From assembly GCF_000016745.1 (NCBI RefSeq), contig NC_009483.1, forward strand, positions 4,440,001 to 4,472,000: a DNA stretch of 32,000 nt. The letters are read 5' to 3'. Shown in pieces: positions 16,630-32,000 of this stretch (positions are counted from its first letter, which is position 1; every line of letters begins with the position of its first letter). Under the pieces are notes generated by a model that saw only the letters and a program-made list of their open reading frames with translations, made no database searches and had not been told where the DNA came from. The DNA comes from Geotalea uraniireducens Rf4. GTDB taxonomy: Bacteria > Desulfobacterota > Desulfuromonadia > Geobacterales > Geobacteraceae. The position numbers and the translations under genes were made by a program.

Positions 16630-17369
16630 TTATTGTTTTCTTCATATTCCAAAGAAATAAGCAATTCACCGGCATTCTTTTTAAAGACATCTACATGCCT
16701 ATCAGTAAAATAATTTCGCCAGTCACCAACAACCCCTTTTCTTACGAAAGTATTATGTTTATATGCTTTACCTAGTTCTTTTTTCATGTTTTCTTTTGTA
16801 AATGCATTAACGCCTTTTATTATTGAATCATCGTCTTGCGAAACATTAATATGCCCGTAGATATCTTTTAATACAGAAAAAGCATCAACTATTAATTCTT
16901 CATACTTGAATGCTACAGTGTCGGTTTCCAGCCAACTCTCAACAAAAGCTGACCATTCCTTTGAAACCATATCGACGTAATCATCAAACGGAATGTTAAA
17001 ATCATCAATAATGCCATTTTTTACGCAAAAATCCTTTTCAAAGAAGTATTTTGAAACAATGACATCTCGGCCATCTCGTATTAAATGTACAAACTTTGCA
17101 GGAATCCTATGCCGGGCAGAATCCGGAAAGTCATGACTTTTGATAATACATGAGTCAGGCAAACCTAGAGAACTTGCATCAGTATACCAAGGGTGCTTAC
17201 TCGCATCATATCCATTTTCAGCTATATTTTCTGATATGTAAATGTCTCTTCTCGGCAGATTGAGACTATGGGCGAGCATACTGACAAGCCATGTACCGCC
17301 GGACTTCGGATATTCCACGACTATTATTTTGCCGACACCATGGTCATTACCAGTCATTTTTATTTTCAT
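16623..17369 (-). CDS. Sulfotransferase (PAPS-dependent family)
   Basis: The 5'-PSB-like loop is EYPKSGGTWLVSML, with IIKSHDF (candidate catalytic His), LIRDGRDVIVSKYF and RKGVVGDWRNYFT. The start is uncertain: candidate ATGs are at 17396, 17369 and 17357. The track start at 17471 would overlap wzt by 125 nt. Confidence 0.8.
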   Translation of the reverse strand: MKIKMTGNDHGVGKIIVVEYPKSGGTWLVSMLAHSLNLPRRDIYISENIAENGYDASKHPWYTDASSLGLPDSCIIKSHDFPDSARHRIPAKFVHLIRDGRDVIVSKYFFEKDFCVKNGIIDDFNIPFDDYVDMVSKEWSAFVESWLETDTVAFKYEELIVDAFSVLKDIYGHINVSQDDDSIIKGVNAFTKENMKKELGKAYKHNTFVRKGVVGDWRNYFTDRHVDVFKKNAGELLISLEYEENNKW

Positions 17370-19482: not shown

Positions 19483-19505
19483 TATTGTTTTCCGCGAAGT
19501 GGCGT

Positions 19506-19668
19506 TACGTGAGTAGTGAGTCGTGAGCAGTAAGTGGTAAAGGCAATTTCGTAAGTCGTAAATCGTAAGTGCCGTGAGTCGTTAATCGTAAGTAGTTAGG
19601 CGTCAATTCTCTTATTTCTTACTTCTCACGGTATTCTTCTCACGTCTCACGGCCGTAACAACTTACGT
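19506..19668. repeat. Heptamer-based palindromic array with no cargo gene: GTRAG-type units, then complementary CTYAC-type units
   Basis: The left arm is cgtgagt agtgagt cgtgagc agtaagt ... cgtaagt cgtaaat cgtaagt. The right arm is cttactt ctcacgg ... ctcacgt ctcacgg ... acttacg. It fills the spacer between mazF and wzt. Confidence 0.9.
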
Positions 19669-19679
19669 CGAAACAGCCC

Positions 19680-20009
19680 TTACAATTCCAGCCACGCCTT
19701 TAGTGAGGCATTGAGTCTCTGCAAGTCTTTTTTTGAAATGCTACCGACCTTCCGCCTTATCAATGCAATATCAACGAGAACACATCCTCGCTTTATCGCT
19801 GATTCTACATTCAACCCGGCCGCCTTCGAATCTTCGAGTACGAATTCTCCATTACAAAGATTACCGGTCTTGCTGGTGATCGGGACAAGGAATAGATCCG
19901 CATATTTCCCCTGGCCTGAGGCGACGATAACCGCCGGCCTGACCTTGGTAGTCTTCAAATCGGTAAAAGGATAGGGGAGTAGAATTATATCTCCTTTAGA
20001 GAAGTTCAT
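19680..20009 (-). CDS. mazF: Type II toxin, MazF/PemK family (mRNA interferase)
   Basis: MNFSKGDIILLPYPFTDLKTTKVRPAVIVAS is the typical PemK N-terminal pattern. It overlaps the upstream antitoxin gene by 14 nt. Confidence 0.8.
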   Translation of the reverse strand: MNFSKGDIILLPYPFTDLKTTKVRPAVIVASGQGKYADLFLVPITSKTGNLCNGEFVLEDSKAAGLNVESAIKRGCVLVDIALIRRKVGSISKKDLQRLNASLKAWLEL

Positions 20010-20244
20010 TGTAGATATCATCCTCTTCGTTATCCCAAACTTTTTTCAGAGATCTTTCGCTCAAGAGTTGCCAGTACTGTTTATCGGAAGCGGTGGAAGC
20101 ACCCCTTTCCTTCTGGTACTTCTGAGCAAGAAACTCGATAAAGTCCAGCGCTTCCCTGCGGGCAGCCGGAGGAAGAGAACTAATCTGCCTGTCAATACTG
20201 CCCACTGCCGATATTGGTTTTTTGATGCTTGTCGTTCCAGGCAT
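19996..20244 (-). CDS. Cognate antitoxin (small acidic C-terminus, DUF2281-like)
   Basis: MPGTTSIKKP...REALDFIEFLAQKYQ...WDNEEDDIYNELL. The RBS GAGGAG lies 7 nt upstream of the ATG at 20244. Its position directly 5' of mazF supports the call. Confidence 0.65.
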   Translation of the reverse strand: MPGTTSIKKPISAVGSIDRQISSLPPAARREALDFIEFLAQKYQKERGASTASDKQYWQLLSERSLKKVWDNEEDDIYNELL

Positions 20245-20267
20245 CGCGAATCTCCTCATTTCAAAAA

Positions 20268-20422
20268 CAGTGAGTCGTTAGTAATAAGTCGTAAGGGCTC
20301 ATTATTCACTTCTCACAGTTTACGGAATTTCTTCTCACTTCTCACTTCTCACTTCTCACTTCTCACTTCTCACTTCTCACTTCTCACTTCTCACTTCTCA
20401 CTTCTCACTTCTCACTTCTCAC
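20268..20422. repeat. Heptamer array: short GTRAG-type arm, then 13 perfect copies of CTTCTCA (20331-20421)
   Basis: I counted the units directly. The stop codon of the adjacent four-helix-bundle gene is supplied by the array (gtg aga agt gag aag TGA on the minus strand). Confidence 0.95.
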
Positions 20423-20761
20423 GGCTTTTACCGATTTGATCAATCCCAGCAGCATTTTCTTAACATCATACAATTTTTCAAGCTGGATTGTCTCTATAAA
20501 TTTCAGTCTTTGAACAAGAAGAAGTTGGGTCTCAAGTTCAGCAATAGACCCGAGGGCAATATAGAGAAACTGAATGAACTCCTTACCATAATTACGCCCC
20601 GCACCTTCAGCAATATTGGAAGGGATTGAAACGGCGGACCTTCGAATCTGACTCGTCAAGCCATAGAGCTCAGACTGGGGGAGTCGGTAAGTTATTTCAT
20701 AGACATCTACAACAAGGTCCATGGCTTTCTGCCAAACATGGAGATCCTTATGAGTCTTCAT
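20405..20761 (-). CDS. Four-helix-bundle protein (23S rRNA intervening-sequence protein / Avd-like family), copy 1
   Basis: [82 protein letters not shown] is the family signature. The start was chosen by analogy with copy 2 ([11 protein letters not shown]). Upstream ATGs at 20776 and 20803 are also possible. Confidence 0.85.
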
Positions 20762-20791
20762 CCCTTCATTGTTCATGTGGTTAGTTTTCTC

Positions 20792-20845
20792 CTCACAACT
20801 CACAACTCACAACTCACAACTCACAACTCACAACTCACAACTCAC
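20792..20845. repeat. Heptamer array: 7 perfect copies of CTCACAA plus one degenerate unit
   Basis: I counted units starting every 7 nt from 20792 to 20840. It lies immediately 5' (in gene orientation) of four-helix-bundle copy 1. Confidence 0.95.
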
Positions 20846-20898
20846 GATTCAAAGCCTATACAACTTACGACTCACTTCTAACGATTCACGGCCCTTAC
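20846..20898. repeat. 53-bp dispersed repeat, copy 1 (partner at 24334-24386)
   Basis: gattcaaagcctatacaacttacgactcacttctaacgattcacggcccttac versus gattcaaagccgttacaactcacaactcacttctaacgattcacagcctttac gives 47/53 identical by hand alignment, in the same orientation. Copy 1 overlaps the wzm stop codon. Confidence 0.85.
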
Positions 20899-21707
20899 AG
20901 CACGTCAGCAAAATGCGGCCTGAGCCTCCGGAAAACCACTGCCCCCAAAATGAAGATGCAGCCGGTTACAATCCAGTAGTAAAGGGTAAGCATGTAGTGC
21001 TGCTCCCAGAACCAGACCTTATAGATGAAACTTTCCCGGTAGCCCTCCACCAGGTAATAGACCGGGTTGAGCTTGATCAGGTTCGCGTATTTGGCCGGGA
21101 GGATCTTGGCGGACCAGAAGATGGGGGTGAGCCAGAAGGCGAACTGGAGGACCATGGCCACCAGCTGCCCCACATCGCGGAGGAAGACCACCAGTGACGA
21201 GGTGAGCCAGGAGAGCCCCAGCAGCAACACTATTGCAGCGAAGAGGTAGTAGAACACTTGGAGGTAGTGAAGGTCCGGCGGATAGCCGTAGAGGATAGAC
21301 ATGATGAAGATGATGGCGATGAAGAAGCTGTGGATAATGAGGGCCGAGAGGATCTTGACGATGGGGAGCATGCCGATGCTGAAGACCACCTTCTTCAGGA
21401 GGAAGCTGTTGTCGATGATGGACATGGTTGCGCTCTGCAGACACTCGCTGAAGAAGAACCAGGGGATGATGCCGGTCATCATCCAGAGGACGAAAGGGTA
21501 GTCTGCCTGGGGCTGGGACTTGAAGCCGACCTGGAAGACGAACCAGAGGATGACGATGTAGATGGTCGGGTGAACGAAGGCCCACAGTATCCCCAGGTAG
21601 GAGCCGAGGTACTTGGTCTTGAAGTCACGCTTGGCCAGCTCCAGGATCATGTGCCGACGGGACCAGAGCTCCGTGAGAAAATTGGAAAACATCTTCAATG
21701 CTTGCAT
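20895..21707 (-). CDS. wzm: O-antigen/polysaccharide ABC transporter permease (ABC-2 type)
   Basis: 270 aa with about 6 hydrophobic segments. The start RRHMILELAKRDFKTKYLGSYLGILWAFVHP is the conserved ABC-2/Wzm N-terminal motif. Confidence 0.9.
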   Translation of the reverse strand: MQALKMFSNFLTELWSRRHMILELAKRDFKTKYLGSYLGILWAFVHPTIYIVILWFVFQVGFKSQPQADYPFVLWMMTGIIPWFFFSECLQSATMSIIDNSFLLKKVVFSIGMLPIVKILSALIIHSFFIAIIFIMSILYGYPPDLHYLQVFYYLFAAIVLLLGLSWLTSSLVVFLRDVGQLVAMVLQFAFWLTPIFWSAKILPAKYANLIKLNPVYYLVEGYRESFIYKVWFWEQHYMLTLYYWIVTGCIFILGAVVFRRLRPHFADVL

Positions 21708-21759
21708 ATCATCTCCAAACTACAAATAACCTAACAACCTTAATCTCAAACCTTTTTAT

Positions 21760-21861
21760 GGGACGCAGATTTACAGGATGAACGCAGATTTAAAGCAACT
21801 CCGGGAGCAAAATCCTTTTTTGTTTTAAAATCATAGCCTTTTCTGCCTTGATCTGCGTCCC
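21760..21861. repeat. 11-bp perfect inverted repeat (gggacgcagat / atctgcgtccc) separated by 80 nt, in the wzm upstream spacer
   Basis: Read directly from the sequence. The left half belongs to a short motif (ttatgggacRCWGATYT) that recurs at 22531-22547. Confidence 0.7.
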
Positions 21862-21941
21862 ATCGAGGTTCTGACCCTGATGGCTTGTCGGATTTCATTC
21901 GTGTCCATTAGTGTCATTCGTGGCTAAATTCCAAGATTTGT

Positions 21942-22226
21942 TCATGCGGCCATCAGCCTTTCGACCTTCAGGTCTTTCCGTTTCTGCTCGGCCAGCGAAA
22001 GGTCGTACTGAACCTGCTGGGTCAACCAGCTTTCAGGTGTTGTATCGAATGCGATGGACAAGCGAATCGCCATCTCCGGGCTTATCCCGGCATGACCGTT
22101 CAATAGCTCGGAAAGGGCCTTGCGGGAAACTCCAAGGGCCTTTGCCGCCTGGGTGACGGAAATGCCGAGGGGCTTGATGCAAAGTTCCCGGATCACCTCT
22201 CCGGGATGGGGTGGGTTGTGCATCAT
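21942..22226 (-). CDS. higA: HigA-family antitoxin (XRE-type HTH)
   Basis: [54 protein letters not shown] is the canonical HigA pattern. Confidence 0.85.
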
Positions 22227-22238
22227 GGTATTTCTCCT

Positions 22239-22382
22239 TTAATGGTAATCCAGGTAGTCGACATCCAAAACGTCCTTCCCTTCAATCCTGAAAACGACTC
22301 GCCAGTTGCCACTGACATCCACAGACCAAAACCCGTCAAAATCTCCGCTCAGGCCATGCAACCTGAGGCCGGGAAGATTCAT
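22239..22382 (-). pseudogene. higB: N-terminally truncated HigB-like toxin (47 codons remain)
   Basis: The minus strand reads MNLPGLRLHGLSGDFDGFWSVDVSGNWRVVFRIEGKDVLDVDYLDYH*, which matches the C-terminal half of HigB killer proteins (...LPGxRLHxLKGDxxGxWSxxVxGNWRxxFxF...DYH). No matching N-terminal half appears in any frame upstream. The fragment is below the ORF-track size cutoff. Confidence 0.6.
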
Positions 22383-22630
22383 GTCTCTCGGTTAAATCGT
22401 AACCCGACACGTTACACATTGCAATGGTTATTTTCCTTCACTCTTCGCAGGTTTTACCGATCCTCGTATTGCCTTCAGTTCATGACTTTCAGTGTTAATC
22501 CGTGGCCAAATGAATAGCTTTCAATCTTTTTTTATGGGACACTGATCTTCATGATCCCCCTGTGTCAGGATAGTTGTCGCCTCTCTTCCGAACTTTTGTG
22601 TTAACCTGCGGGGCAACAGAGAGAGGGACC

Positions 22631-23155
22631 ATGGCCACCAAATATTCCGAAGAATTCAAGTCGAGCATTATTGCCAGGCTTCTGCCTCCGCATAATGTCA
22701 GCGTTCCTGACATGGTAAAAGAGACCGGGGTTCCTAAAGACACCCTGTACACTTGGAGGAATCAATACCGCAACAGGCAGGTTAATGCCGAGGCGAGCGG
22801 AAATCATCCGGCAGCCAGCCTAAACAACGAAGAGAAGTTGGCCATCGTCATCGAATCCGCCAGTCTCACTGAAGTTGAACTGGGTGAATATTGCCGACGC
22901 AAGGGACTCTACCCTGAGCAGATCGCCGGTTGGAAGAACGGCTTCGTACTCGGATCATCTGCCCCCCTCAACAAGGCCGAACGCGAGCAAATGAGGGAAC
23001 AGACAGCGACCATTAAGCAGCTTGAGAAAGAGCTGAACCGCAAGGATAAAGCATTGGCCGAGACTGCAGCCCTGCTGATTCTTCAAAAAAAGTTCCAGGC
23101 GCTCTGGGAGGAGCCCGAGGCAGAAAAATCGACCTCCCGGCGCGCCAAGAACTGA
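22631..23155 (+). CDS. IS3 transposase OrfA (HTH plus leucine-zipper part)
   Basis: MATKYSEEFKSSIIARLLPPHNVSVPDMVKETGVPKDTLYTWRNQY. The RBS gagagaggga lies before the ATG at 22631. The track start at 22574 is probably too early. Confidence 0.85.
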   Translation: MATKYSEEFKSSIIARLLPPHNVSVPDMVKETGVPKDTLYTWRNQYRNRQVNAEASGNHPAASLNNEEKLAIVIESASLTEVELGEYCRRKGLYPEQIAGWKNGFVLGSSAPLNKAEREQMREQTATIKQLEKELNRKDKALAETAALLILQKKFQALWEEPEAEKSTSRRAKN

Positions 23156-24192
23156 TTGCCCTGATAGACGAAGCCTGTGCCGGTGGTGCACGTCTGGGTA
23201 GGGCCTGCGAGGCTGTTCTTCTTTCGCCCCGCACCGTGCAACGTTGGCATCTTCCTGACGAAATACCCTCAGATGGGCGCAAGGCCGCGTCTCGCGATCG
23301 GGCACCGGCCAATAAGCTTTCTGAAACGGAGCGGGTCACAATCCTGGCGACTGCCAACCAGGAGAAATTCGCCAGCCTGCCGCCCAGCCAGATAGTTCCT
23401 AAATTGGCCGACGACGGGATCTTCCTCGCTTCTGAGTCAACCTTCTACCGAACCTTACGGGCAGAGAAGCAGCTGGCACACCGGGGCCGTACCAAGGCTG
23501 CAAGACACAAGCGCCCAGATGCCGTGCTGGCCACCGAGCCGAACCAACTCTGGAGCTGGGATATTACATACTTGAGCACTACCGTTAAGGGGCTGTACTT
23601 TTACCTCTACCTGATCATGGATGTCTTTAGCCGCAAGATCGTCGGTTGGGAAGTCTATGCGGAGGAATCCGCCGATCATGCCGCCATAACGTTGCGCAAG
23701 GCCTATCTGCGTGAAGGCGTCGCCGGTCGCACCCTGATACTTCACTCCGACAACGGCTCGCCCATGAAAGGCGCTACCATGTTGGGAACTATGCAGAAGC
23801 TTGGGGTAATGCCGTCCTTCAGTCGGCCCTCTGTCAGCAATGACAACCCATACTCAGAGTCACTGTTCAAAACCTTGAAGTATCACCCCGGCCTACCGGA
23901 GAAACCTTTCGATACGTTGGACGAGGCACGGCACTGGGTTGCCGGTTTCCAGCATTGGTACAACGAGGAACATCAGCACAGTGCCATAAAATTCGTAACG
24001 CCGGGTCAGCGCCACCGGGGCGATGACAAAGAGATACTCAACAAACGAGCGCTACTTTACGCGATGGCGAGGGCCGCAATGCCGGAACGATGGTCGGGTG
24101 CTTGCCGGAACTGGACTCGACCAGCAGAAGTTTCCTTGAACCCCCAAAAATCGGCTCAGAACGGTACGCCGTCTCAAGCCAGAGCAGCATAG
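22631..24192 (+). CDS. IS3 transposase OrfAB fusion, made by a programmed -1 frameshift
   Basis: After a -1 slip at A AAA AAG the reading continues ...QKKVPGALGGARGRKIDLPARQELIALIDEACAGGARLGRACEAVLLSPRTVQRWH... into the track ORF 23236-24192. The DDE residues are in WSWDITYL, LHSDNGSPM and NDNPYSESLFKTLK. Confidence 0.8.
23085..23092 (+). other. A7G slippery heptamer for -1 ribosomal frameshifting in the IS3 transposase
   Basis: The sequence is cttcAAAAAAAGttcc. The orfB frame is open upstream of this point, and the orfA stop lies 60 nt downstream. Confidence 0.75.
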
Positions 24193-24333
24193 AAGATGCG
24201 ACAACTTCCTTGACAACGACCGTGATGAACACAGATCTAAAAAAATCCTTAGATCATGGGGTTTGCCTTCACATCATGCCTTTTCAGTGTTAATCAATGT
24301 CCAAAATGCCTAAATCATGCTCCTTCCCCTTGC

Positions 24334-24386
24334 GATTCAAAGCCGTTACAACTCACAACTCACTTCTAACGATTCACAGCCTTTAC
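24334..24386. repeat. 53-bp dispersed repeat, copy 2 (partner at 20846-20898)
   Basis: See copy 1. More CTCAC-type units follow it (cactattcactgttcacaactcacgcctca). Confidence 0.85.
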
Positions 24387-24460
24387 AATCATATTCGGCC
24401 GACTGACAATTTTTATTGTTTTACCCCACTATTCACTGTTCACAACTCACGCCTCATGGC

Positions 24461-24502
24461 TTTTAATAAAAAAGAGGCGGCCACTTTCGTAACCGCCCCT
24501 CC
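24461..24502 (-). terminator. Probable Rho-independent terminator of the exported-protein gene
   Basis: The minus strand reads GGAGGGGCGG-uuacgaaagugg-CCGCCUC followed by UUUUUUAUUAAAA, 40 nt after the stop at 24541. Confidence 0.5.
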
Positions 24503-24540
24503 ACTTAACCATTCACAATAAACTATTCCAATCGGCAACT

Positions 24541-25227
24541 TTAATACAGAGTTCTCCACGCCGTGTTGCCACTGGCATCCTGTGCACATATTTCAAGAAT
24601 ATCCTTACCGGTGCTAGCATTCTTTGTAAACCAGAAGGTACCCCTATCATTTGCAGCAGTTGTATTGTCACATGTTGGCTTTGTAGCTGTTGTAGGATTG
24701 ACCCGAACACCTCCATTAACATCAAAGCGCTGGGTAGGTGTCTTTGTTCCTAACCCAAAGTTTCCTGCATAATCAAGCCTATACGCTTCTGTAAGCGTAA
24801 CGGCTCCTCCAACTGTTGCACCCTGATTTACAAATGCTCTAAATCCAACAGACCCAGACCCGAAAAAAATCGATTTCCCATCAGAGGACTTCTGCGTCCA
24901 AACATTGTTCTTAAGAACAGCACCAGAAGATATCCAAAAGTTATTTTCACCAACAGATGACAACCAGCCACCTGAATCAGCGCCATCATATGCAAAATGA
25001 AGAGTAGAGTCTGTCGCAGCAGCAGGTGTAGCAACGTCAACAGAATATTTGGGAGTATTCAAGTTAAATCCTGTCAACCCTGCATCAGTAACATCCATCG
25101 CATTGGCAACGTTTGTTGCGTGCTTCACAATCAACTTGTCCGCCGCACCAGCCACCGAAGCCATCATCAACCCCGAAACCGCAACCACCGAGGCCATTGC
25201 CAAAATTCTCTTACGCAAGCTTTTCAT
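24541..25227 (-). CDS. Exported protein of unknown function (signal peptide; tail-fibre-like GxGT..P...DV.G motifs)
   Basis: MKSLRKRILAMASVVAVSGLMMASVAGAADK is a signal peptide. The RBS AGGAGG lies 8 nt upstream of the ATG at 25227. The motif GNFGLGTKTPTQRFDVNGGVRV is present. Confidence 0.7.
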   Translation of the reverse strand: MKSLRKRILAMASVVAVSGLMMASVAGAADKLIVKHATNVANAMDVTDAGLTGFNLNTPKYSVDVATPAAATDSTLHFAYDGADSGGWLSSVGENNFWISSGAVLKNNVWTQKSSDGKSIFFGSGSVGFRAFVNQGATVGGAVTLTEAYRLDYAGNFGLGTKTPTQRFDVNGGVRVNPTTATKPTCDNTTAANDRGTFWFTKNASTGKDILEICAQDASGNTAWRTLY

Positions 25228-25574
25228 GTGTAAAACCTCCTGTTTATGTGTCTTTGACTTTGTCATTTATTCTGGGACTGGAGATCGGGAACAGATTACT
25301 GATCCTGCTTATTTCTAATCCCGGCTGCCTGGCCCCTGTCATTTAACCGCATGCTTCTCAATTTAGCGTAAAAACTTCTGCACCACCCAACGGGCCGCTC
25401 GGAGTTCTCAAGACCTTAATCATCTTGCCCCAACGCCTGATTTACAACTTTTATGAATGTACCATAAAACAATTATTAAAGAACTTCAACTATTTTTACT
25501 TTTAATCGTCATTTCAAAGATACAATTTTAACGGCACGACTAGAAATTATGCAAAATAGGGGCCAATTAAAAGC

Positions 25575-25778
25575 GGTCGATGGTCGGCGGTCGGTGGTTG
25601 ACTGCCGACTGCCGACTGCAGTTCTATGGTCGGCGGTCGGCGGTTTCACTGTTTACGGCATTCTTCTCACTTCTTACGGCTACGGCCATTAAAGTCGGTC
25701 GGCAGTCGACAGTCGACAGTCGACAGTCGACAGTCGATGGCTGAACTTCGGCCGATGGTCGATGGTCGGCGGACTGTG
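25575..25778. repeat. Composite heptamer array with no cargo gene: GGTCGRY units, TGCCGAC units, a CTYAC segment, 5 copies of CAGTCGA (25703-25737), then GGTCGRY units
   Basis: Read directly from the sequence. TGCCGAC/GACTGCC is complementary to GGCAGTC/CAGTCGA, which gives nested dyad symmetry. No ORF is present. Confidence 0.9.
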
Positions 25779-25809
25779 GTAAGAACGTCTCCCGTCGCTC
25801 TCTAATTCT

Positions 25810-25941
25810 TCACCGCTTCTTGATTTCCTCATACAACTGCGTCGCCGATTTCTGGCCAAAAAGCTCACTCTTGATCTTCAGGTAATCCTCTTTGTGTGCC
25901 ATGTTTTCCCTGATGAAAATAGCAGCCTTGGTAATGCCCAT
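25810..25941 (-). CDS. Small hypothetical ORF (43 aa), possibly the remnant of a gene disturbed by the adjacent IS
   Basis: MGITKAAIFIRENMAHKEDYLKIKSELFGQKSATQLYEEIKKR. The 93-aa track version reads through the IS terminal repeats and is not credible as drawn. Confidence 0.25.
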   Translation of the reverse strand: MGITKAAIFIRENMAHKEDYLKIKSELFGQKSATQLYEEIKKR

Positions 25942-26005
25942 CTGCTTAATAAGCGTCTGAACCGCCTCACTTCTTACTTCTTCGCTGGAAGGTACTATTT
26001 GACAA

Positions 26006-27400
26006 GTGTCAGGACATCGGTTACCCGGATGTGTCAAGACATCGGTTACCCTTAACGCCCTTTTTTGTGTCAAGACATCGGTTACCTTCATTAGAAATAT
26101 CAGCTACAATGTTCTCTGTGATTTCAACTTGAGGGGAGAACATCCGCATGGAAGAAGAACTCAGGAAACAAGCAGTCCAGCGCCATCTTGCAGGCGAATC
26201 ACCCAAGGCAGTCTATACAAGCCTTGATCGCTCCAAGAAGTGGTTTTTTAAGTGGTTGAACCGGTATCAATCTGGCGCGACTGACTGGTACAAGGAACAC
26301 TCAAGAGCGCCACTTAAAAGACCGTCTGAACTCAGCATCGTAGATAAGGAGATTATTGTCTCCACCAGAAACCGCCTGGACTCGTCACCATTTGCACAGA
26401 TTGGCGTTTCCGCTATCAAGTGGGAGCTGCATAAGCTGGGGTTACCGTTTCGCTCTGACAGCACCATTAACCGGACCCTGAAGCGGGAAGGACTCGTTAA
26501 AAAAAACGAGATATTCCCCCAAAGGGGTCGAGTACCCGTACTTTACCGAAGCCCTGTGCTGCAACAACATCCATCAGATGGATCTTGTTGGCCCCCGCTA
26601 CATCAAGAGTGACGGCAGATTTTACTCGATGAATGTGATTGATCTGTACAGCCATCGGGTCTTCATCGAATCAAATCGCACCAAGGAGGATGACAACATT
26701 GCACAGGGTTTGCTGCGCTGCTGGAAGTCAATGGGGCTTCCCGACTTCCTGCAAATGGACAATGAACTCAGTTTCCGTGGCAGTAACCGCTATCCGAGGT
26801 CACTTGGTCTGGTGCTGCGACTATGTCTCTACTTCGGCGTTCATCCTGTTTTTATCCCTGTTGCGGAACCGTGGCGCGATGGCGTAATAGAGAGCTTCAA
26901 CGATACCTATGACAAAAAGTTTTTTCGCCGCCAGTGGTTCACAAGCTATTCCATGCTCAAGCGGCAAAGCAAGAATTTCCAGCAGTTTCACAACAAGAAT
27001 CACCGTTACAGCTATCTCAAGGGGAAAACGCCACTGGAGGTTATTGAAGCTGACAAATTCAAGCCCTTGACGCTGGGGCCAAATACCAGGATGCCAAAAC
27101 TTGATTTTCTCCCGGACGGCACCATTTCGCTCATTAGATTTATCAGGAGCGATAGAACACTTAACATCTTTGGCGAAAAATTTGAGGTTTCAAAAGACCT
27201 CGTCTATTCATATGTGCGAGCCATGATCGTAACGGAAATTCACACGCTGCAAGTGTACCTGGGTGAAGACTTTGTTCAAAGCTTTGAGTACAGAATGCCT
27301 ACAGAGTTCAGCTCATGAAATAGTATGCATAATCAGGGGGTCGGGTAACCGATGTCCTGACACTTTTTAGAGTTAGGCTTGGGTAACCGATGTCCTGACA
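26006..27400 (+). mobile_element. IS element with an rve/DDE transposase (IS481-like) and multiple terminal repeat copies
   Basis: The 20-nt motif tgtcaRgacatcggttaccc occurs 3 times at the left end (26007, 26032, 26068). It occurs twice inverted at the right end (27343-27362, 27381-27400). An 8-bp direct repeat TTTGACAA flanks the element (25998-26005 and 27401-27408). Confidence 0.8.
26148..27318 (+). CDS. Transposase (HTH plus integrase-core DDE), split by a frameshift at an A8 run (26499-26506)
   Basis: Track ORFs 26148-26612 and 26578-27318 join if one A is removed: ...REGLVKKKTRYSPKGVEYPYFTEALCCNNIHQMDLVGPRYI... The DDE residues are in HQMDLVG, LQMDNELSF and RDGVIESFN. Confidence 0.75.
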
Positions 27401-27497
27401 TTTGACAACTATTAATTTCTTAACTGTCGGCATTGTCCGCCTCCTGTTGCAAAATGAGCATGGTGAATTCCACTGGGTTTATCGCCACAACGGCACC

Positions 27498-27553
27498 TAG
27501 GATCTGGGATCTGAAAAGTCGGGATCGGGGACCTGGGATCTGGGATCGGTAAC
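27498..27553. repeat. GGGATCT-type heptamer array (3' flank of four-helix-bundle copy 2)
   Basis: taggatctgggatctg...gggatcggggacctgggatctgggatcggtaac. The 20-mer ctgggatctgggatcggtaa (27533-27552) recurs exactly at 27999-28018. Confidence 0.95.
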
Positions 27554-27588
27554 TACTTGTTCTTTTTCCATGCGTATAGATTCTCTGT

Positions 27589-27945
27589 TCATAATTGCTT
27601 TGATTTGTAATGTTTTATAAGACCACTTATGAGCTTTTTGACTGTGACTATTTTAGCAAGTAATTGGTTAATTTCGCCAGAAAAATCCAAACGTTGGGCA
27701 ATAATTAATTGAGTCTCAGCCTCAGCAGCGGAACCCAAAGCAACATGTAAAAACTGAATAAACTCTTTTTCTGAATTCCTCGCCGCTCCTTCTGAGATAT
27801 TCGATGGAATCGAAACCGCGGCTCTTCTTAATTGGCTGGTTAAACCATAGAGTTCATCCTTCGGGAAATCCTTGGAAATCGCATAAACATCAACAACTAA
27901 ATCCATACTGATTTTCCATGCATCAAGCTCTTTATGGTCCTTCAT
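27589..27945 (-). CDS. Four-helix-bundle protein (23S rRNA IVS protein / Avd-like family), copy 2
   Basis: [86 protein letters not shown]. The RBS AAGGAGA lies 5 nt upstream. Confidence 0.9.
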
Positions 27946-27967
27946 TTCATCTCCTTGAAAGCGGTGA

Positions 27968-28018
27968 ACTGGAATCAGGGATCTGGAATCTAAAAAGGCT
28001 GGGATCTGGGATCGGTAA
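27968..28018. repeat. GGGATCT-type heptamer array (5' flank of copy 2), in direct orientation relative to 27498-27553
   Basis: ctggaatcagggatctggaatct...ctgggatctgggatcggtaa. Confidence 0.95.
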
Positions 28019-28023
28019 AAACT

Positions 28024-28247
28024 GTTCCCTGTTCCCTGTTCCCTGTTCCCTGTTCCCTGTTCCCCGTTCCCCGTTCCCCGTTCCCCGTTCCCCGTTCCCC
28101 GTTCCCCGTTCCCCGTTCCCCGTTCCCCGTTCCCCGTTCCCAGTTCCCAGTTCCCAGTTCCCAGTTCCCAGTTCCCAGTTCCCAGTTCCCAGTTCCCAGT
28201 TCCCAGTTCCCAGTTCCCAGTTCCCAGTTCCCAGTTCCCAGTCCCCA
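28024..28247. repeat. 32-unit heptamer array in three homogeneous blocks: (GTTCCCT)5 (GTTCCCC)11 (GTTCCCA)15 plus one GTCCCCA
   Basis: I counted the blocks unit by unit: 28024-28058, 28059-28135, 28136-28240. The reverse complement TGGGAAC differs from the TGGGATC unit of the neighbouring arrays at one position. Confidence 0.95.
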
Positions 28248-28251
28248 GCCT

Positions 28252-28584
28252 TTACGGCCTGAAATAATCGGGCTCATCATGGCCATCTACCCATATTGCC
28301 AGAAGATGGGCAATATCACCAGCCACCAGATAGCGCAAATGCAGCCGACGATAGGCAATTGGCATAACAGCCAGATGAAATGCAATCTCCCTGTCGCCAA
28401 TAACCTTTCTGCGGATCGGCCAGGCATGGGGATGATTATCGATTGTGGCAAGGATGGTGGTCATTGCCGACGGAAGGGCGATAAACGCCAGAGGGCTTGC
28501 CTTACGCAGATAACTGCTCAAATCAGAGTATGCCGCCTCGAATGTCGGTGTTACCCGTATTCTGGAATGACGTCTGGTCTTCAC
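28252..28584 (-). CDS. RelE/ParE-superfamily toxin
   Basis: 110 aa with the ParE-like pattern (...[20 protein letters not shown]...HPHAWPIRR...[21 protein letters not shown]). It has an ATGA overlap with the upstream RHH gene. The family call is by eye only. Confidence 0.55.
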
Positions 28585-28871
28585 GCATTCTTTCTCAGCA
28601 ATGAGTCAGACAGTGCCGCACCCTGGCGGGAATCCTCTTCTATCATGGATACAAGGCGGTCAGCCGGTCCGGACAGGCCTTTTTCGATATCACCGAGCGA
28701 CTGCATGGTCATAAGATCGGCGCGGCGTTCCCGCATATCTTCCTCAACAATTGCTCTGGCGCCGGCCTTGAAGAGCCATTGCGGTGTACGATCATGAACA
28801 CGGCAGTACTCATTGATGATGGCAGCCTCAGCCTCCTCAAGGGCAACATTGATCTGTAATCGCTTTTTCAC
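28581..28871 (-). CDS. Ribbon-helix-helix (CopG/ParD-like) antitoxin
   Basis: I prefer a GTG start at 28869-28871, preceded by TAGGAGG and a 6-nt spacer, giving (M)KKRLQINVALEEAEAAIINEYCRVHDRTP... (RHH strand-helix pattern). The track ATG at 28949 adds 26 implausible Cys-rich residues. Confidence 0.6.
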   Translation of the reverse strand: MKKRLQINVALEEAEAAIINEYCRVHDRTPQWLFKAGARAIVEEDMRERRADLMTMQSLGDIEKGLSGPADRLVSMIEEDSRQGAALSDSLLRKNA

Positions 28872-28953
28872 GGCACACCTCCTAGCATTGCAAGCAATTC
28901 TATCACAACCATGCAAGAAACACCAGAGATTGAGCAGTTCACTCGCCAATTTC

Positions 28954-29044
28954 CCCCAGTCCCCAGTCCCCAGTCCCCAGTCCCCAGTCCCCAGTCCCCA
29001 GTCCCCAGTCCCCAGTCCCCAGTTCCCGCCGACCGCCGACCGCC
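28954..29044. repeat. Heptamer array: (CCCCAGT)10, then TCCCGCC and (GACCGCC)2
   Basis: I counted CCCCAGT units from 28954 to 29023. The array lies between the cysNC stop (29047) and the RHH antitoxin start. Confidence 0.95.
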
Positions 29045-29046
29045 TT

Positions 29047-30894
29047 TCACAGCAACACCCCCATCTCCTCCATTTTCGCCACGATACGCCTGGCTGCCTC
29101 TTTCAGGTCATCAGACTCGAGAAAGTTCAGATCGGTATTCTCCGGCGCCTCCCCCTCGGCAAAGGCCATATGCACGGAAATGACCTGGTGGGGATGGACA
29201 AGTGTGCGGATGATCTGGTGATCGGCCCGGGCAAAGGTATTGGTGGTGGAAACCACGATCTGCCCCGCCCTGAGCAGGATCTGCGCCACTTCGCCGAAAC
29301 GGCGCACCATTTCGTCCTTATCCTCCTCGGTTACATCTAGCCCCAGGCCAAATAGCAGGTTTTTCCCGTCAAGGAGATACACCTGCCGACCGCTGTTGAA
29401 AAGCCGCCGCTCCAGGTGTCGGGCAAGGCGCGCCTTGCCGGTGCCGCTTTCGCCGGTGAAGAGGATGATGCCGGGATTGTGGCCGTTGCGCTGCACCCGT
29501 TCGCCGAGCTGAACCTCGCCGCGACGCCAGGCGATGTCGCGCTGCCTCGCTTCCCTGCGGAACGCTTCCTGCTCGTCGCTCAGCACTTCCGTGACTATGC
29601 CGCCGCCCCACACGTCATAACCGTCCACCACCACAAACCGGCCGGTGACGTCGCATTCTGCATAGCAGTCCAGGGCGATCGGCTTCCTGGTCCTGATGGT
29701 CACTTCCGCCACGTCGTTCAGGTCAACGCGGTCCTTTACCGCAACCGGGTCGAGGCTGGCGGCATCGATGATGCGATGGATCGTTTCCAGCTCCATCTCC
29801 ACCGCACAGGTTGCCAGCCTTAAGCCGTACCTGCGGCCGCGAACAAGGGGGTTCTTCCCCATCCAGAACAGGTTGGCGCGAAAACGGTCCGACACCTCCG
29901 GCGCCGACTCTTTTAACGAGGCGATCTCGCCCCGTTCGACGAAAATCTGCTCGTCGAGGGTAAAGCCGGTCGATTTGCCGGCAACTGCCGCCAATGGGAG
30001 ATGGGGAACATTGAAGGCCTCGATGGTCTTGACGACGGCGGTTTTATTGGAGGGTGAAAACACCACGGTATCGCCGACCCGCAGGACTCCGGCAGCAAGC
30101 CGGCCGGCAATGATGCGGCGGGCGTCGAACTTGTAGACATCCTGCACCGGAAAGCGGAGCGGCAGGTCTTCGCCGGTCGGCAGCTTCTCAAAGAGACCGA
30201 GGCTTTCCAATACCGTAGACCCCCGATACCATGGCATGGCATCACTGCGCCGCACCACGTTGTCGCCGTTCCTGGCGCTGGCTGGGATAAACTGCTGCGG
30301 CGAGACGCCCACCCCCTTCAGGAATGCCCCGTACTCTTCGACGATGGCGTTAAAGACCTGCTCGTCATAGCCGACCAAGTCCATCTTGTTGACGACCACC
30401 GCAATCTGCCGGATCCCCAGGAGACTGAGCATGTAGCCGTGGCGCCGCGACTGTTCGCGCACCCCTTCGGCAGCATCGATGATCAGCACCGCCGCCTCGG
30501 CCCTGGCAGCGCCCGAAATCATGTTTTTCAGGAACTCCTTATGCCCCGGCGCATCTATTATTATATACTGCCGGTTTTCCCAGGAAAAAAAGGTGCGGGC
30601 GGTATCGATGGTAATCCCCTGCTCCTGCTCTTCGAGAAATGCATCAAAGAGGAAGGCGTACTCAAATGCCTTTCCCTGTTGCTCGCAGATGGCGCGGACC
30701 TTCTCCAGCTGCCCATCGGGAAGGGAATCGGTGTCCGCGTAGATGCGCCCGAGAAGGGTGGACTTGCCGTGGTCCACGTGACCGACTATTACTACGGTGA
30801 AGGCGGTCGATGGTGGATGGTGGATGGTCGATGGTGGATGGTCGATAGTCGTTGGTGGATGGTCATTTGTTGATGGGCTCACGCTATTTTTCAT
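29047..30894 (-). CDS. cysNC: Sulfate adenylyltransferase subunit 1 (GTPase CysN) fused to a short, divergent APS-kinase-like domain
   Basis: The G-domain motifs are [18 protein letters not shown] and NKMD. The C-terminal 141 aa read [46 protein letters not shown]...RRFGEVAQ. The first roughly 30 codons are encoded by a heptamer array. Confidence 0.85.
30805..30874. repeat. GGTCGAT/GGTGGAT heptamer array (about 10 units) lying inside the 5' end of the cysNC reading frame
   Basis: ggtcgat ggtggat ggtggat ggtcgat ggtggat ggtcgat agtcgtt ggtggat ggtcatt tgttgat. On the minus strand it translates as ...[21 protein letters not shown]... Confidence 0.95.
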
Positions 30895-31255
30895 ATTTGA
30901 CTCTCAGTGATTTTATGAGCGCATTGAGCTGCTTGCGGATGACTACGGTTTCTCCGAGTAGTGTCTCAGCTTCAACTGCATACCCCAGTTTTTGTGCAAC
31001 AATCAATTGGGTCTCAAGTTCGGCAGCAGAACCACCGGCAATGGATAAGAATCGGATAAACTCCCGATTGCCTTGCCTTCCTGCCCCTTCGGCAATGTTC
31101 GAAGCGATTGAGACCACTGACCGCTTAATCTGGTCGGCCAGACCAAAGTGCTCATCCAGAGGGAATTTTTGAAGTATTCCATAAACAGACACTGCCAGAT
31201 TGACTGAACGCTGCCAGACATCAAGTTCCTTATAGTCCCTTATTTTCTCCACCAT
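30884..31255 (-). CDS. Four-helix-bundle protein (23S rRNA IVS protein / Avd-like family), copy 3
   Basis: [90 protein letters not shown]. Its last codons (aaa tAT GAA AAA TAG) contain the cysNC ATG. Confidence 0.9.
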
Positions 31256-31286
31256 TCACCGCCTTTACCTTTACCATACCTTTACA

Positions 31287-31413
31287 CATCATCTGTCATC
31301 CGTCATCCGCCATCCGCCATCCGCCACCGACCACCGACCACCGACCATCGACCACCGACCATCGACCGCCGTTCAGCCATCGACCGCCGTTCAGCCATCG
31401 ACCACCGACCGCC
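31287..31413. repeat. CATCCGC/CACCGAC/CATCGAC heptamer array (about 18 units), the inverted complement of the 30805-30874 array
   Basis: catccgc catccgc catccgc caccgac caccgac caccgac catcgac caccgac catcgac ... The reverse complement gives GGTCGAT/GGTCGGT/GGCGGAT units. It fills the cysD to four-helix-bundle spacer. Confidence 0.95.
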
Positions 31414-31415
31414 TC

Positions 31416-32000
31416 TCACATATACCCATCCTTCCTCAGCTTCTCCATCCCCCGGTCCGCATCCTGTGCCCTGCCGGAGCGTTCCGCAACCTTTGTGTTG
31501 CGCAGTTCCGCGATGATTTCATCCACATTCTTCGCCTTCGATTGAATGGTGCCGGTACAGGGCGCGCAACCGAGACTTCGATAGCGGGTCCCGTTCCCCT
31601 GGTCAAAATAGAGCGGGATGACCGGAATATTTTCTTTCTTGATGTATTCCCAGATATTGATCTCGGTCCAATCCAGGAGGGGATGGATCCGGACATGGGT
31701 GCCCGGCTCGAACCGGGTTTTGAACTGGTCCCACAACTCGGGTGGCTGCTCGCGGAAATCCCAGTCGTTGTTCTTGTCACGGGGAGAAAAATAACGCTCC
31801 TTTGCCCTGGTTCCTTCCTCATCGGAACGGACGCCGACAATGACCCCGTTGTACCCCTTATCGGCAAGGGTTCGGCTCAAGCCTTCGGTTTTAAGTGCGG
31901 TGCAGCACTCCATTCTACCCAGGGAAGGGTTCATGCCAGCCTCAAGGGCTTGCCGGTTCTGCCCCACCACCAGGGTCAAGCCCCATTCCTCGGCCAGCCT
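31416..32000 (-). CDS. cysD: Sulfate adenylyltransferase subunit 2 (CysD); the N-terminus runs off the right edge of the window
   Basis: ...[91 protein letters not shown]. The frame stays open to position 32000, so the track ATG at 31979 is internal. Confidence 0.9.

Follow-up and report, generated by a model that had tools for sequence, protein, structure and literature searches.

Intervening sequences (IVSs) of 23S rRNA that carry an S23p-type gene of the PF05635 family have been described in Leptospira and Coxiella burnetii (Ralph & McClelland 1993, as cited in PMC4990558). The Coxiella IVS contains an S23p open reading frame (ORF) with three GACAGAT heptamer repeats upstream of it, and its 28-bp terminal inverted-repeat stem is cut by RNase III in vitro (PMC4990558). 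Here we analyzed a 32,000-nt stretch of the Geotalea uraniireducens Rf4 genome (NC_009483.1, positions 4,440,001-4,472,000; hereafter the window) in which a PF05635 gene flanked by inverted heptamer arrays lies between cysD and cysNC, with all features of the locus on the minus strand. We consider it probable that this element is a selfish cassette of the IVS type, made up of a promoter-less PF05635 gene set within inverted heptamer arrays, that has inserted at the cysD/cysNC junction of an operon supplying 3'-phosphoadenosine 5'-phosphosulfate (PAPS).

The window element shares several properties with 23S IVSs. It encodes a member of the same protein family, it is of comparable size (614 nt versus ~430-760 nt for the IVSs), and its terminal inverted repeats are predicted to close a long stem around an ORF that appears to be promoter-less and would ride on the host transcript. 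The Coxiella heptamer GACAGAT adjoins its ORF, and the 5' arm of the window element likewise ends with ...GACGGAT GACAGAT. There are also clear differences. Unlike 23S IVSs, which are located in helix 25/45, the window element sits at a junction within a protein-coding operon, and unlike the unique 28-bp repeat of Coxiella its stem is built of long tandem arrays. A further difference is that its 3' arm appears to be translated into host protein, with the element supplying the host start codon, such that the RNase III excision observed in vitro for the Coxiella IVS would be costly here. Finally, the Coxiella IVS ORF is decaying while cassette ORFs of the window type are under purifying selection. 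The parts of the element and the related arrays in the window are listed in Table 1.

Table 1. Coordinates of the cysD/cysNC element, its flanking genes and further arrays and cassettes in the window (SD, Shine-Dalgarno; TRF, Tandem Repeats Finder; MFE, minimum free energy; APS, adenosine 5'-phosphosulfate)
Feature	Position	Strand	Evidence or remark
cysD, 3' part	31416..32000	minus	PF01507 E 1.3e-25; NF003587 CysD 244 bits; stop TGA 31418-31416
Whole hairpin-shaped insert, 614 nt	30801..31414	minus	terminal inverted repeat AGGCGGTCG...CGACCGCCT; MFE structure pairs both ends
5' arm, G/T-rich heptamer array, ~18 units	31287..31414	minus	TRF, sequence reading (by eye 31414 to about 31287), motif scan
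Spacer, ~30 nt, with SD-like AAGG	31256..31286	minus	AAGG 6 nt 5' of cassette ATG (31255-31253); sequence reading
PF05635/TIGR02436 four-helix-bundle ORF ('23S rRNA IVS protein', S23p-type), 123 aa	30884..31255	minus	profile matches
SD-like GAGAG within cassette Leu-Arg codons CTGAGA	30901..30905	minus	6 nt 5' of cysNC ATG
Overlap ATGAAAAATAG, 11 nt	30884..30894	minus	cysNC ATG 30894-30892; cassette stop TAG 30886-30884
3' arm, C/A-rich heptamers ATCCACC/ATCGACC	30801..30876	minus	TRF, inverted repeats, in-frame conservation in relatives
cysN(C), 615 aa, C-terminal APS-kinase-like domain	29047..30894	minus	TIGR02034, PF00009, PF01583
Next array	28954..29046	minus	AAGGCGGTCGGC x2, GGGAACT, ~ten GGGGACT; 1 nt past cysNC stop, same boundary motif
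Second PF05635 cassette	27500..28250	minus	ORF 27589-27945; 32-unit 5' array grading TGGGAAC to GGGGAAC to AGGGAAC
Third PF05635 cassette	20331..20890	minus	ORF 20405-20803; 5' TGTGAGT x7, 3' GTGAGAA x13

A sequence-only reading of this DNA had proposed that a four-helix-bundle ORF of 372 nt (stop codon included) separates cysD from cysNC and is bracketed by two heptamer arms that are reverse complements of each other, and all of these features were recovered to within a few bases of the coordinates given. TRF, with array scores of 49-99, detects the 5' arm at 31289-31407, where its rows include two 18-nt composite units, and the 3' arm at 30805-30864 with either a period of 7 (8.6 copies, 81% matches) or, with a better fit, a period of 21 (92%); degenerate units extend the 3' arm to about 30876. 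The 5' arm begins 1 nt past the cysD stop with AGGCGGTCGG, which includes the boundary motif AGGC, and its sense units GGTCGGT, GGTCGAT, GGCGGAT and GACGGAT are interrupted twice by GGCTGAAC. The 3' arm is its reverse complement, encodes CysNC residues about 7-31 and terminates with ...CGACCGCCT located 15 nt before the codons for the GHVDHGKS P-loop. Specifically, the two arms are 80% complementary over 61 nt (30802-30862 versus 31310-31370), and the ends of the element form a 20-nt terminal inverted repeat with 90% complementarity (30801-30820 versus 31395-31414). Scanning for three copies of GGTSGAT with three or fewer mismatches gave 15 matches versus 0 expected from 100 shuffles, with plus strand matches in the 3' (downstream) arm and minus strand matches in the 5' (upstream) arm. 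A consensus scan of 30600-31700 found no sigma-70-like promoter and no intrinsic terminator, and an Rfam search at a permissive threshold over 19000-32000 returned no rRNA and only two chance-level matches. The SD-like site preceding the cassette ORF is present at the equivalent position in orthologues as GGAGG, GAGG or GAAGG. Regarding the flanking gene, cysD extends past the window end and its C-terminus ...KLRKDGYM* is kept in all relatives.

Comparison with relatives indicates that the element is an insertion. Scanning for CysNC with one genome per species gave 80 loci, with cysD located directly upstream in 76 of them. The statement in the sequence-only reading that cysD and cysN are normally adjacent agrees with this set, where the G-domain motif is 38-442 nt away from the cysD stop in 74 of the 76 loci (38-296 nt in 73 and 442 nt in one). 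Distances above 500 nt occur only in the two that bear a cassette, a deltaproteobacterial metagenome-assembled genome (L001) and Geotalea sp. SG265 (L002), both of which have the same cysD-array-PF05635-cysNC order as the window. Geomonas propionica (L003), with a CysNC that is 73% identical, has no cassette. At its junction the 614-nt segment is absent, the cysD stop overlaps the cysNC GTG (ATGTGATGG), and the CysNC N-terminus begins with MMDTAKEHFQIVFVGH. Protein look-ups added metagenome loci with a cassette at this junction (L081-83, L084-87 and L171), which brings the occurrences of a PF05635 gene at the exact cysD/cysNC junction to five lineages (the window, L001, L002, L081-83 and L084-87) plus L171. 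The junction is thus empty in Geomonas and filled in five Geotalea-like lineages. Nitrospira loci with longer cysD-cysN spacers (184-442 nt) were checked for arrays and had none, and a repeat-free version of the arrangement was not found conserved in distant relatives. Since cassette-bearing CysNC proteins differ by up to ~19%, the insertion predates the split of several lineages. Overall the alignments indicate that the element inserted into an overlapping cysD/cysNC junction in the Geotalea-like lineage, that it is absent from the sister genus, and that it took the place of the first ~8 cysNC codons.

We next consider the start of cysNC, which codes for a protein with a TIGR02034 CysN score of 351.6 bits (cutoff 336.1), a PF00009 match at E 6e-44 and an intact GHVDHGKS P-loop. 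The sequence-only reading had located the only ATG for cysNC within the last codons of the cassette. This placement stands, as the ATG is the only in-frame ATG and the two genes overlap by 11 nt; the refinement is that there is also an in-frame GTG at 30882-30880. Orthologues start with GTG at the position of the window ATG, and only there is a start codon preceded 6-7 nt upstream by an SD-like GAGRR, which is derived from the cassette Leu-Arg codons CTGAGR with this spacing in the window, L001, L002, L081 and L084. Furthermore, the first in-frame cysNC start overlaps the cassette stop in every cassette-bearing orthologue, taking the form ATGAAAAATAG in the window, GTGAAAAGTAA in L081 and L084-86, and GTGA in L001 and L002. 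Downstream of this codon the 3' array is in frame in all eight distinct sequences examined, with a length of 63-282 nt. The distance from the start to the GH motif is 14 codons without a cassette versus 21 (L002), 37 (window), 42, 44, 55, 68 and 94 (L081) codons with one, and the resulting tails are Pro/Thr/His-rich or Ala/Asp/Arg/Pro-rich with a lineage-dependent length.

It could be argued that cysNC instead starts past the array at a non-canonical codon, which would leave the 3' arm as only a 5' untranslated region. Indeed, the array peptide is of low complexity and has no counterpart in homologues outside of the lineage (mainly Nitrospira), most of which align only from query residue about 22-32. 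However, no ATG, GTG or TTG is present in orthologues between the array and the P-loop strand, with the array abutting the codons for FTVVIVGH; the open frame over 63-282 nt and the length steps described below also argue against such a start, which we regard as very improbable. The evidence instead indicates that CysNC starts at the codon overlapping the cassette stop, behind a cassette-encoded SD-like GAGRR, and that it is translated through the 3' arm to give a repeat-encoded N-terminal tail of variable length, with the first ~31 residues in the window predicted to be element-derived. This supports the earlier claims that the cassette supplies the cysNC start codon and that the insertion remodelled the cysNC 5' end. 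Initiation at cysNC may be coupled to translation of the cassette or may be driven by the SD-like site.

Array lengths in L084, L085 and L086, which share an identical cassette protein, show how the two arms change. In this order, the three loci have non-coding 5' arms of 140, 154 and 147 nt (7-nt steps) and coding 3' arms of 165, 204 and 126 nt (39-nt steps, equal to 13 codons), with the caution, to be counted among the points against our interpretation, that these are low-coverage short-read metagenome contigs with array copy numbers that are possibly mis-assembled. The window 3' arm itself is matched exactly by an independent Logan contig (L168, 100% identity over 2356 nt). Because steps of 7 nt occur in one arm and steps of 39 nt in the other, slippage appears to be unconstrained where the arm is untranslated and to be limited to frame-preserving changes where it is translated. 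This indicates that the arrays evolve by slippage with the coding arm held in frame.

Such an array could also be a phase-variation switch in which gain or loss of a single unit would turn CysNC, and with it polysaccharide sulfation, on or off. Similar to contingency loci built on simple sequence repeats (SSRs), cysNC has a non-triplet repeat in the 5' coding region of a gene for a surface structure. Seven nucleotides are not a multiple of three, the operon serves a cluster for a surface polysaccharide that includes sulfotransferases and Wzm/Wzt and is a typical target of such switches, and array lengths differ between strains. Unlike SSR contingency loci, the cysNC alleles are all in frame (8 of 8 distinct sequences, in a small sample of consensus assemblies that hold only majority alleles and from which rare OFF variants would escape), the coding arms differ by 39 and 78 nt, and the imperfect array changes by super-units that preserve the frame. 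Single-unit slippage is disfavored because the window array is imperfect at period 7 and fits better at period 21. Phase variation is therefore an unlikely function of this array.

The cassette protein is a clear member of its family. It matches PF05635 at E 1.1e-34 with 119.2 bits (cutoff 33.8) and the TIGR02436 'four helix bundle protein' profile with 122.8 bits (cutoff 24), and among solved structures the closest is that of the pentameric Xanthomonas protein XCC0516 (PDB 2GSC; E 2.5e-22 over residues 6-118). In a 23-sequence PF05635 alignment, residues R45, S49, N53, E56 and G57 are invariant, and the R45-S49-N53-E56 motif is present in the cassette protein; the family motif GxxRxxxSxxxNxxE has been described (PMC3936711). 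PF05635 genes wedged among cas genes are also already known. Between orthologues with a measurable synonymous substitution rate (dS), the ratio of nonsynonymous (dN) to synonymous substitution is 0.06-0.13, from which it follows that the cassette protein is kept by selection. Avd, the accessory protein of diversity-generating retroelements, is a pentamer as is XCC0516, and is a basic, nucleic-acid-binding partner of reverse transcriptase. As PF05635 is homologous to Avd (PMC10053308), with both having a homologous four-helix-bundle fold, and as there is a weak NF033474 match (E 0.0015), the cassette gene could conceivably be an avd gene of such a retroelement. We rejected this identity, the chance of which we consider negligible: the NF033474 score is 18.8 bits versus a cutoff of 80, the window ORFs scanned contain no Pfam match to a reverse transcriptase, a template/variable repeat pair was not noticed (none was searched for), and unlike avd the cassette gene stands alone flanked by arrays.

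The cassette can also be replaced. When the window is compared with the metagenomic locus L081, cysD differs with a dS of 0.05, the flanks (98% nucleotide identity) with a dS of 0.05-0.07, and cysNC from the GH motif on is 98.07% identical over 1761 nt without gaps. However, identity between the two cassette proteins is as low as 67% (dN 0.24, saturated dS), and their arms are also different. Conversely, the L081 cassette protein is 88% identical to that of L084, even though the L084 flanks are only 90-94% identical. Near-identical flanks around a 67%-identical cassette protein indicate that the cassette was exchanged independently of the host genes. The left breakpoint of the swap is inside the 5' arm, past a shared GAGGCGGTCGATGGCTGAACGGCGGTCGATGG, and the right breakpoint is at window position 30786, the first base of GTCGGTCAC.

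A second difference between these two loci is an extra ~395-nt cassette that is present directly past the cysNC stop in L081 (5485-5915 versus window 29026-29046). It contains a 68-aa DUF2281-like ORF with its own A/T-rich upstream region, placed between (GGTCGGT)3 and (GGTCGGC)2(GGGGACT)n. At this site the window, which is otherwise 98-99% identical, has the fused array alone. As this DUF2281 cassette is found in L081 and not in the window, arrays also bracket non-PF05635 cassettes that are gained or lost between strains.

To address how general this architecture is, we used the 23-protein alignment to retrieve 80 further metagenome loci with PF05635 genes. Short-period arrays near these genes most often have a period of 7, with 8 second and the multiples 14 and 21 also occurring. 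Arrays cover 29% of positions within 50 nt upstream and 43% within 50 nt downstream of the gene versus ~2% beyond 200 nt, and an array is present within 200 nt on at least one side for 65 of 72 genes and on both sides for 43 of 72. We scored flank complementarity by ungapped inverted matches, as RNAduplex on 230-nt flanks had a baseline of -76 kcal/mol for mismatched pairs and was dropped. A score of 12 or more is reached by 51 of 71 own flank pairs versus 7 of 213 mismatched pairs. The unit sequences vary widely from element to element (GTTGATG, GTTGGGA, GCTAGTC, GGACTAAG, GGGAAGA and others), and yet in 27 of 42 elements the 5' and 3' units are reverse complements of each other with no more than one mismatch (exactly so in 16), versus 4.3% of mismatched pairs. 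The arm units therefore genuinely covary across these loci.

The polarity of the arms is also conserved. Read on the sense strand of the ORF, 5' arrays are richer in G than C (50 versus 7) and 3' arrays are richer in C than G (67 versus 6). Neighboring genes are largely co-oriented (60:13 upstream and 58:9 downstream) and separated by short gaps, and none of the 40 loci tested for an rRNA location had one. We conclude that covarying inverted arms, G-to-C polarity and co-orientation are a general architecture of PF05635 genes outside of rRNA. Regarding the translated 3' arm, several other host genes, among them a GDP-mannose-dehydratase-like gene (gmd, L137), two GDP-fucose-synthase-like genes (fcl, L091 and L166) and an RmlD-like gene (rmlD, L133), lack a start codon of their own and appear to initiate at or beside the PF05635 stop and to read through the 3' arm. 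As gmd-, fcl- and rmlD-like genes appear to start in this manner, the cysNC case is not unique. Many of the PF05635 neighbors in this sample seem to be sugar-nucleotide or polysaccharide genes.

These loci bear on the question of whether the PF05635 protein has been domesticated as a true operon member, for example as a partner or regulator of CysD/CysN. Occupation of the same site in at least five lineages, the low dN/dS and the apparent coupling of cassette translation to cysNC would fit such a role. Against it, a like architecture is found beside unrelated genes in the 80 metagenome loci and two further cassettes are present in the window, a 67%-identical allele replaced the cassette in a near-identical genome, and the cassette is absent from Geomonas and from all Nitrospira cysDN loci. 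Domestication thus appears quite improbable.

The sequence-only reading had described the two arms as an IVS-like stem, and folding of the transcript agrees with this. The 636-nt RNA covering 30790-31425 on the minus strand folds with its arms paired at an MFE of -252 kcal/mol versus -209 +/- 4 for shuffles (z = -10), and in all seven orthologous elements the MFE structure pairs the 5' with the 3' arm through 38-109 pairs, with 67 in the window. Replacing one arm by its reversed sequence lowers stability by only 6-40 kcal/mol, which is a weak control because reversed G/T-rich and C/A-rich arrays remain partly complementary. The units of the two arms correspond to some extent, such as GGTCGRT/GGCGGAT with ATCGACC/ATCCACC in the window and GGTCGGC with GCCGACC in L001. 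The L081 arms are nested in layers, with GGTCGAT... and TGCCGAC x7 ahead of the ORF and GTCGGCA xn and ACCGACC/GCCGACC behind it.

On the basis of these features, the mechanism that we favor for an IVS-type cassette is one in which the element would be transcribed by read-through from the host operon. Pairing of the arms in the transcript would then create a long imperfect helix that encloses the cassette ORF and both start codons in its loop. The analogy with 23S IVSs makes this helix a candidate either for RNase III cleavage or for a role in mRNA stability. Ribosomes that end the cassette ORF, or that initiate at the adjacent SD-like site, would open the helix and translate cysNC. Either selection for pairing or template switching from one inverted arm to the other, or both, would maintain the complementarity of the arms.

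Several observations weigh against this interpretation. One is that RNase III cleavage seems to be damaging, as it would part the cysNC start codon from the coding body. Because full excision would decapitate the cysNC mRNA, processing must be partial, ribosome-blocked or absent, and pairing of the arms may be transient, partial or regulatory. A second is that L002 is almost devoid of a 3' arm (38 pairs). A third is that the arms of the cysDN orthologues constitute one unit family, in which cross-lineage pairs often fit as well as own pairs, and covariation among them is only partial, being clear for TGCCGAC/GTCGGCA of L081 and weak for GGCAGAC of L084. Since these arms share one unit family, we judged covariation on the 80 unrelated loci. 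A fourth is that the window arm duplex shows no meaningful asymmetry between the sense (-110.6 kcal/mol) and antisense (-108.1 kcal/mol) strands; as both are about equally stable, there is no G-U signature favoring RNA over DNA. Finally, the cysC-cysD spacer of L081 (2010-2185) contains an ORF-less hairpin made up of AAGGC(GGTCGGC/GGCGGAC)n, an ~80-nt loop and (CGCCGAC/CACCAAC)n that stops immediately ahead of the cysD ATG. Its boundary motif and G-to-C polarity are those of ORF-bearing cassettes. As heptamer arrays occur here without PF05635, the arms may not strictly belong to the cassette.

Some of these points suit a different explanation, namely that the arms matter mainly as DNA, with hairpins or cruciforms promoting slippage, template-switch 'quasipalindrome correction' and recombination, and with the RNA stem being incidental. 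Inverted arrays would then be hot spots for gain, loss and swapping of cassettes. The lack of strand asymmetry fits this explanation, as do the breakpoints of the replacement (one within the 5' arm, one at the edge of the 3' arm), the DUF2281 cassette located between direct (GGTCGGY)n runs in L081 and absent from the window, and the orphan arm fragments beside insertion sequence (IS) elements at 25573-25768. On the other hand, the fixed polarity of G-rich 5' and C-rich 3' arrays together with neighbor co-orientation fit a role at the transcript level more naturally, and the known relatives, the 23S IVSs, act as RNA (PMC4990558). We regard a mainly DNA-level role as a serious but doubtful alternative, which is not mutually exclusive with a role of the arms in RNA.

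Heptamer arrays have also been described outside of IVSs, with the cyanobacterial short tandemly repeated repetitive (STRR) sequences among the abundant ones. Reported SSRs include GGGAATC in Xanthomonas and GGGGA(C/T)T in Nostoc (in passages of PMC4692102) and TAACTGA in Beggiatoaceae (in passages of PMC4679880). Like the window arrays, SSR arrays are mostly intergenic, near stop codons and between co-directional ORFs. They often form convergent inverted pairs and vary in copy number between close relatives, and the window itself holds (GGGGACT)n and TGGGAAC/GATCCCA arrays that resemble known SSR units. Unlike the SSR arrays, those at PF05635 genes bracket one gene family, covary at the level of the unit and have a fixed polarity. 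The retrieved passages of PMC4692102 discuss G-quadruplex formation and those of PMC4679880 suggest translational regulation, and neither set of passages names S23, 'intervening' or four-helix-bundle proteins. G-quadruplexes are not possible with the cysDN units (GGTCGAT). Likewise, the Geobacter metallireducens genome paper lists heptanucleotide elements, with no link to PF05635 in the passages searched.

Two other systems invite comparison. Repetitive extragenic palindromic (REP) sequences and bacterial interspersed mosaic elements, together with REP-associated tyrosine transposases (RAYTs) in REPtrons, and mRNA-stabilizing hairpins resemble the window arrays in forming repeat hairpins between co-directional genes with scattered ORF-less copies, and a REPtron is likewise a small gene flanked by inverted copies of its own repeat. 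Unlike RAYTs, PF05635 has no transposase-like domain, and its repeats are tandem arrays and not single palindromes. Integron cassettes are similar in being promoter-less single genes that depend on an upstream host promoter, have structured imperfect inverted-repeat bounds and are swapped between relatives. They differ in that the PF05635 elements have no integrase or attI, have arrays on both sides of the ORF in place of one attC, and occupy sites scattered in operons.

The PF05635 family, the IVS concept, the Coxiella heptamers and the Xanthomonas/Nostoc heptamer SSRs of unexplained function are already known. Full-text literature searches gave no description of PF05635 genes with covarying inverted arrays, of the fixed polarity or of host start-codon capture, and no open-access paper that we found links PF05635 to flanking heptamers beyond the three Coxiella GACAGAT repeats. 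We tentatively suggest, as a possibility that we would not rate highly, that PF05635 proteins and covarying inverted short-period (mostly heptamer) arrays constitute one widespread class of operon-riding elements, of which 23S IVSs are the best-known insertions and from which the ORF-less heptamer arrays found in Geobacteraceae, in Xanthomonas and in cyanobacteria (STRR-type) would derive. The pentameric protein would maintain, process or propagate the stem of its own array, as RNA or single-stranded DNA, in a RAYT-REP-like manner, and host 5' ends would be rewritten as a by-product, with the elements contributing start codons and hypervariable N-terminal tails.

The locus is of interest in that a selfish insert appears to have captured the translation start of a core metabolic gene without killing it, and in that the 7-nt non-coding versus 39-nt coding steps constitute a natural experiment on frame selection. 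The usual home of PF05635 genes in our sample is between co-directional protein genes, in a strict and testable architecture. This links two puzzles, the function of the IVS/S23p ORF and the origin of abundant bacterial heptamer repeats, and cultivable systems such as Geotalea sp. SG265 are available for testing the IVS-heptamer link. A practical consequence for gene calling and annotation is that a host gene located downstream of such a cassette should be expected to begin within it.

Regarding the surroundings, the window contains a polysaccharide cluster of the Wzm/Wzt type with sulfotransferases, methyltransferases, a radical-SAM enzyme, glycosyltransferases and gmd, for which cysDNC presumably supplies PAPS for glycan sulfation. 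The Wzt-type ABC ATPase (17347-19482) combines ABC_tran, Wzt_C and Sulfotransfer_1 domains, an unusual C-terminal sulfotransferase fusion which suggests that the terminal modification of the exported glycan is sulfate. The APS-kinase-like domain of CysNC (29047-29500) covers only profile positions 4-109 of 152, the NF004035 bifunctional CysNC score is 468 bits (below the cutoff of 715), and L002 and L081 have a separate full-length cysC upstream of cysD; the fused domain may be non-catalytic, with its kinase activity uncertain.

In L001 and L002 an ABC-2 permease directly follows cysNC. In the window these genes are ~7.3 kb apart, with arrays, two PF05635 cassettes' worth of sequence, toxin-antitoxin-like pairs and two IS elements located between them. 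Arrays in the window regularly start 0-4 nt past a stop codon with RGGC. The near-perfect (CCCCAGT)10.6 array at 28954-29027 reads GGGGACT on the gene strand, which is the classical cyanobacterial STRR unit, although the array is in a Geobacteraceae genome. It is also the unit of a G-quadruplex-forming Nostoc repeat in the passages of PMC4692102. Between the GGGGACT and TGGGAAC arrays are two overlapping ORFs of 122 and 110 aa (28252-28949, GTGA overlap) without Pfam matches that have a toxin-antitoxin-like layout. The second PF05635 cassette has GATCCCA units on both sides of its ORF that are only 6/7 complementary to its long array. The third directly follows the ABC-2 permease stop (TAAGGGC...); its GTGAGAA array overlaps and encodes the ORF C-terminus, and complementary ACTTACG/ACTCACG units are located further downstream. 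At the syntenic position after the permease, L002 has a (GTGAGGA)8 array, but a tblastn search of the L002 locus detected no further PF05635 gene. The region 19509-20290 contains a gene for a PemK/MazF-like toxin (19680-20021) and a small ORF upstream of it, and this pair is itself bracketed by GTGAGAA/GTAAGAA-type and complementary ACTTACG-type units. Two IS-type transposase pairs, at 22574-24192 and 26148-27318 (HTH_Tnp_1 + rve and HTH_23 + rve_3), are on the opposite strand to the polysaccharide operon. Between these two IS elements, at 25573-25768, are orphan C-type fragments (CCGCCGACC, CTGTCGA x5, GCAGTCGGCAGTCGG and GAAGTTCAGCC) that resemble the composite 3' arm of L081 and are possibly a remnant of a disrupted element.

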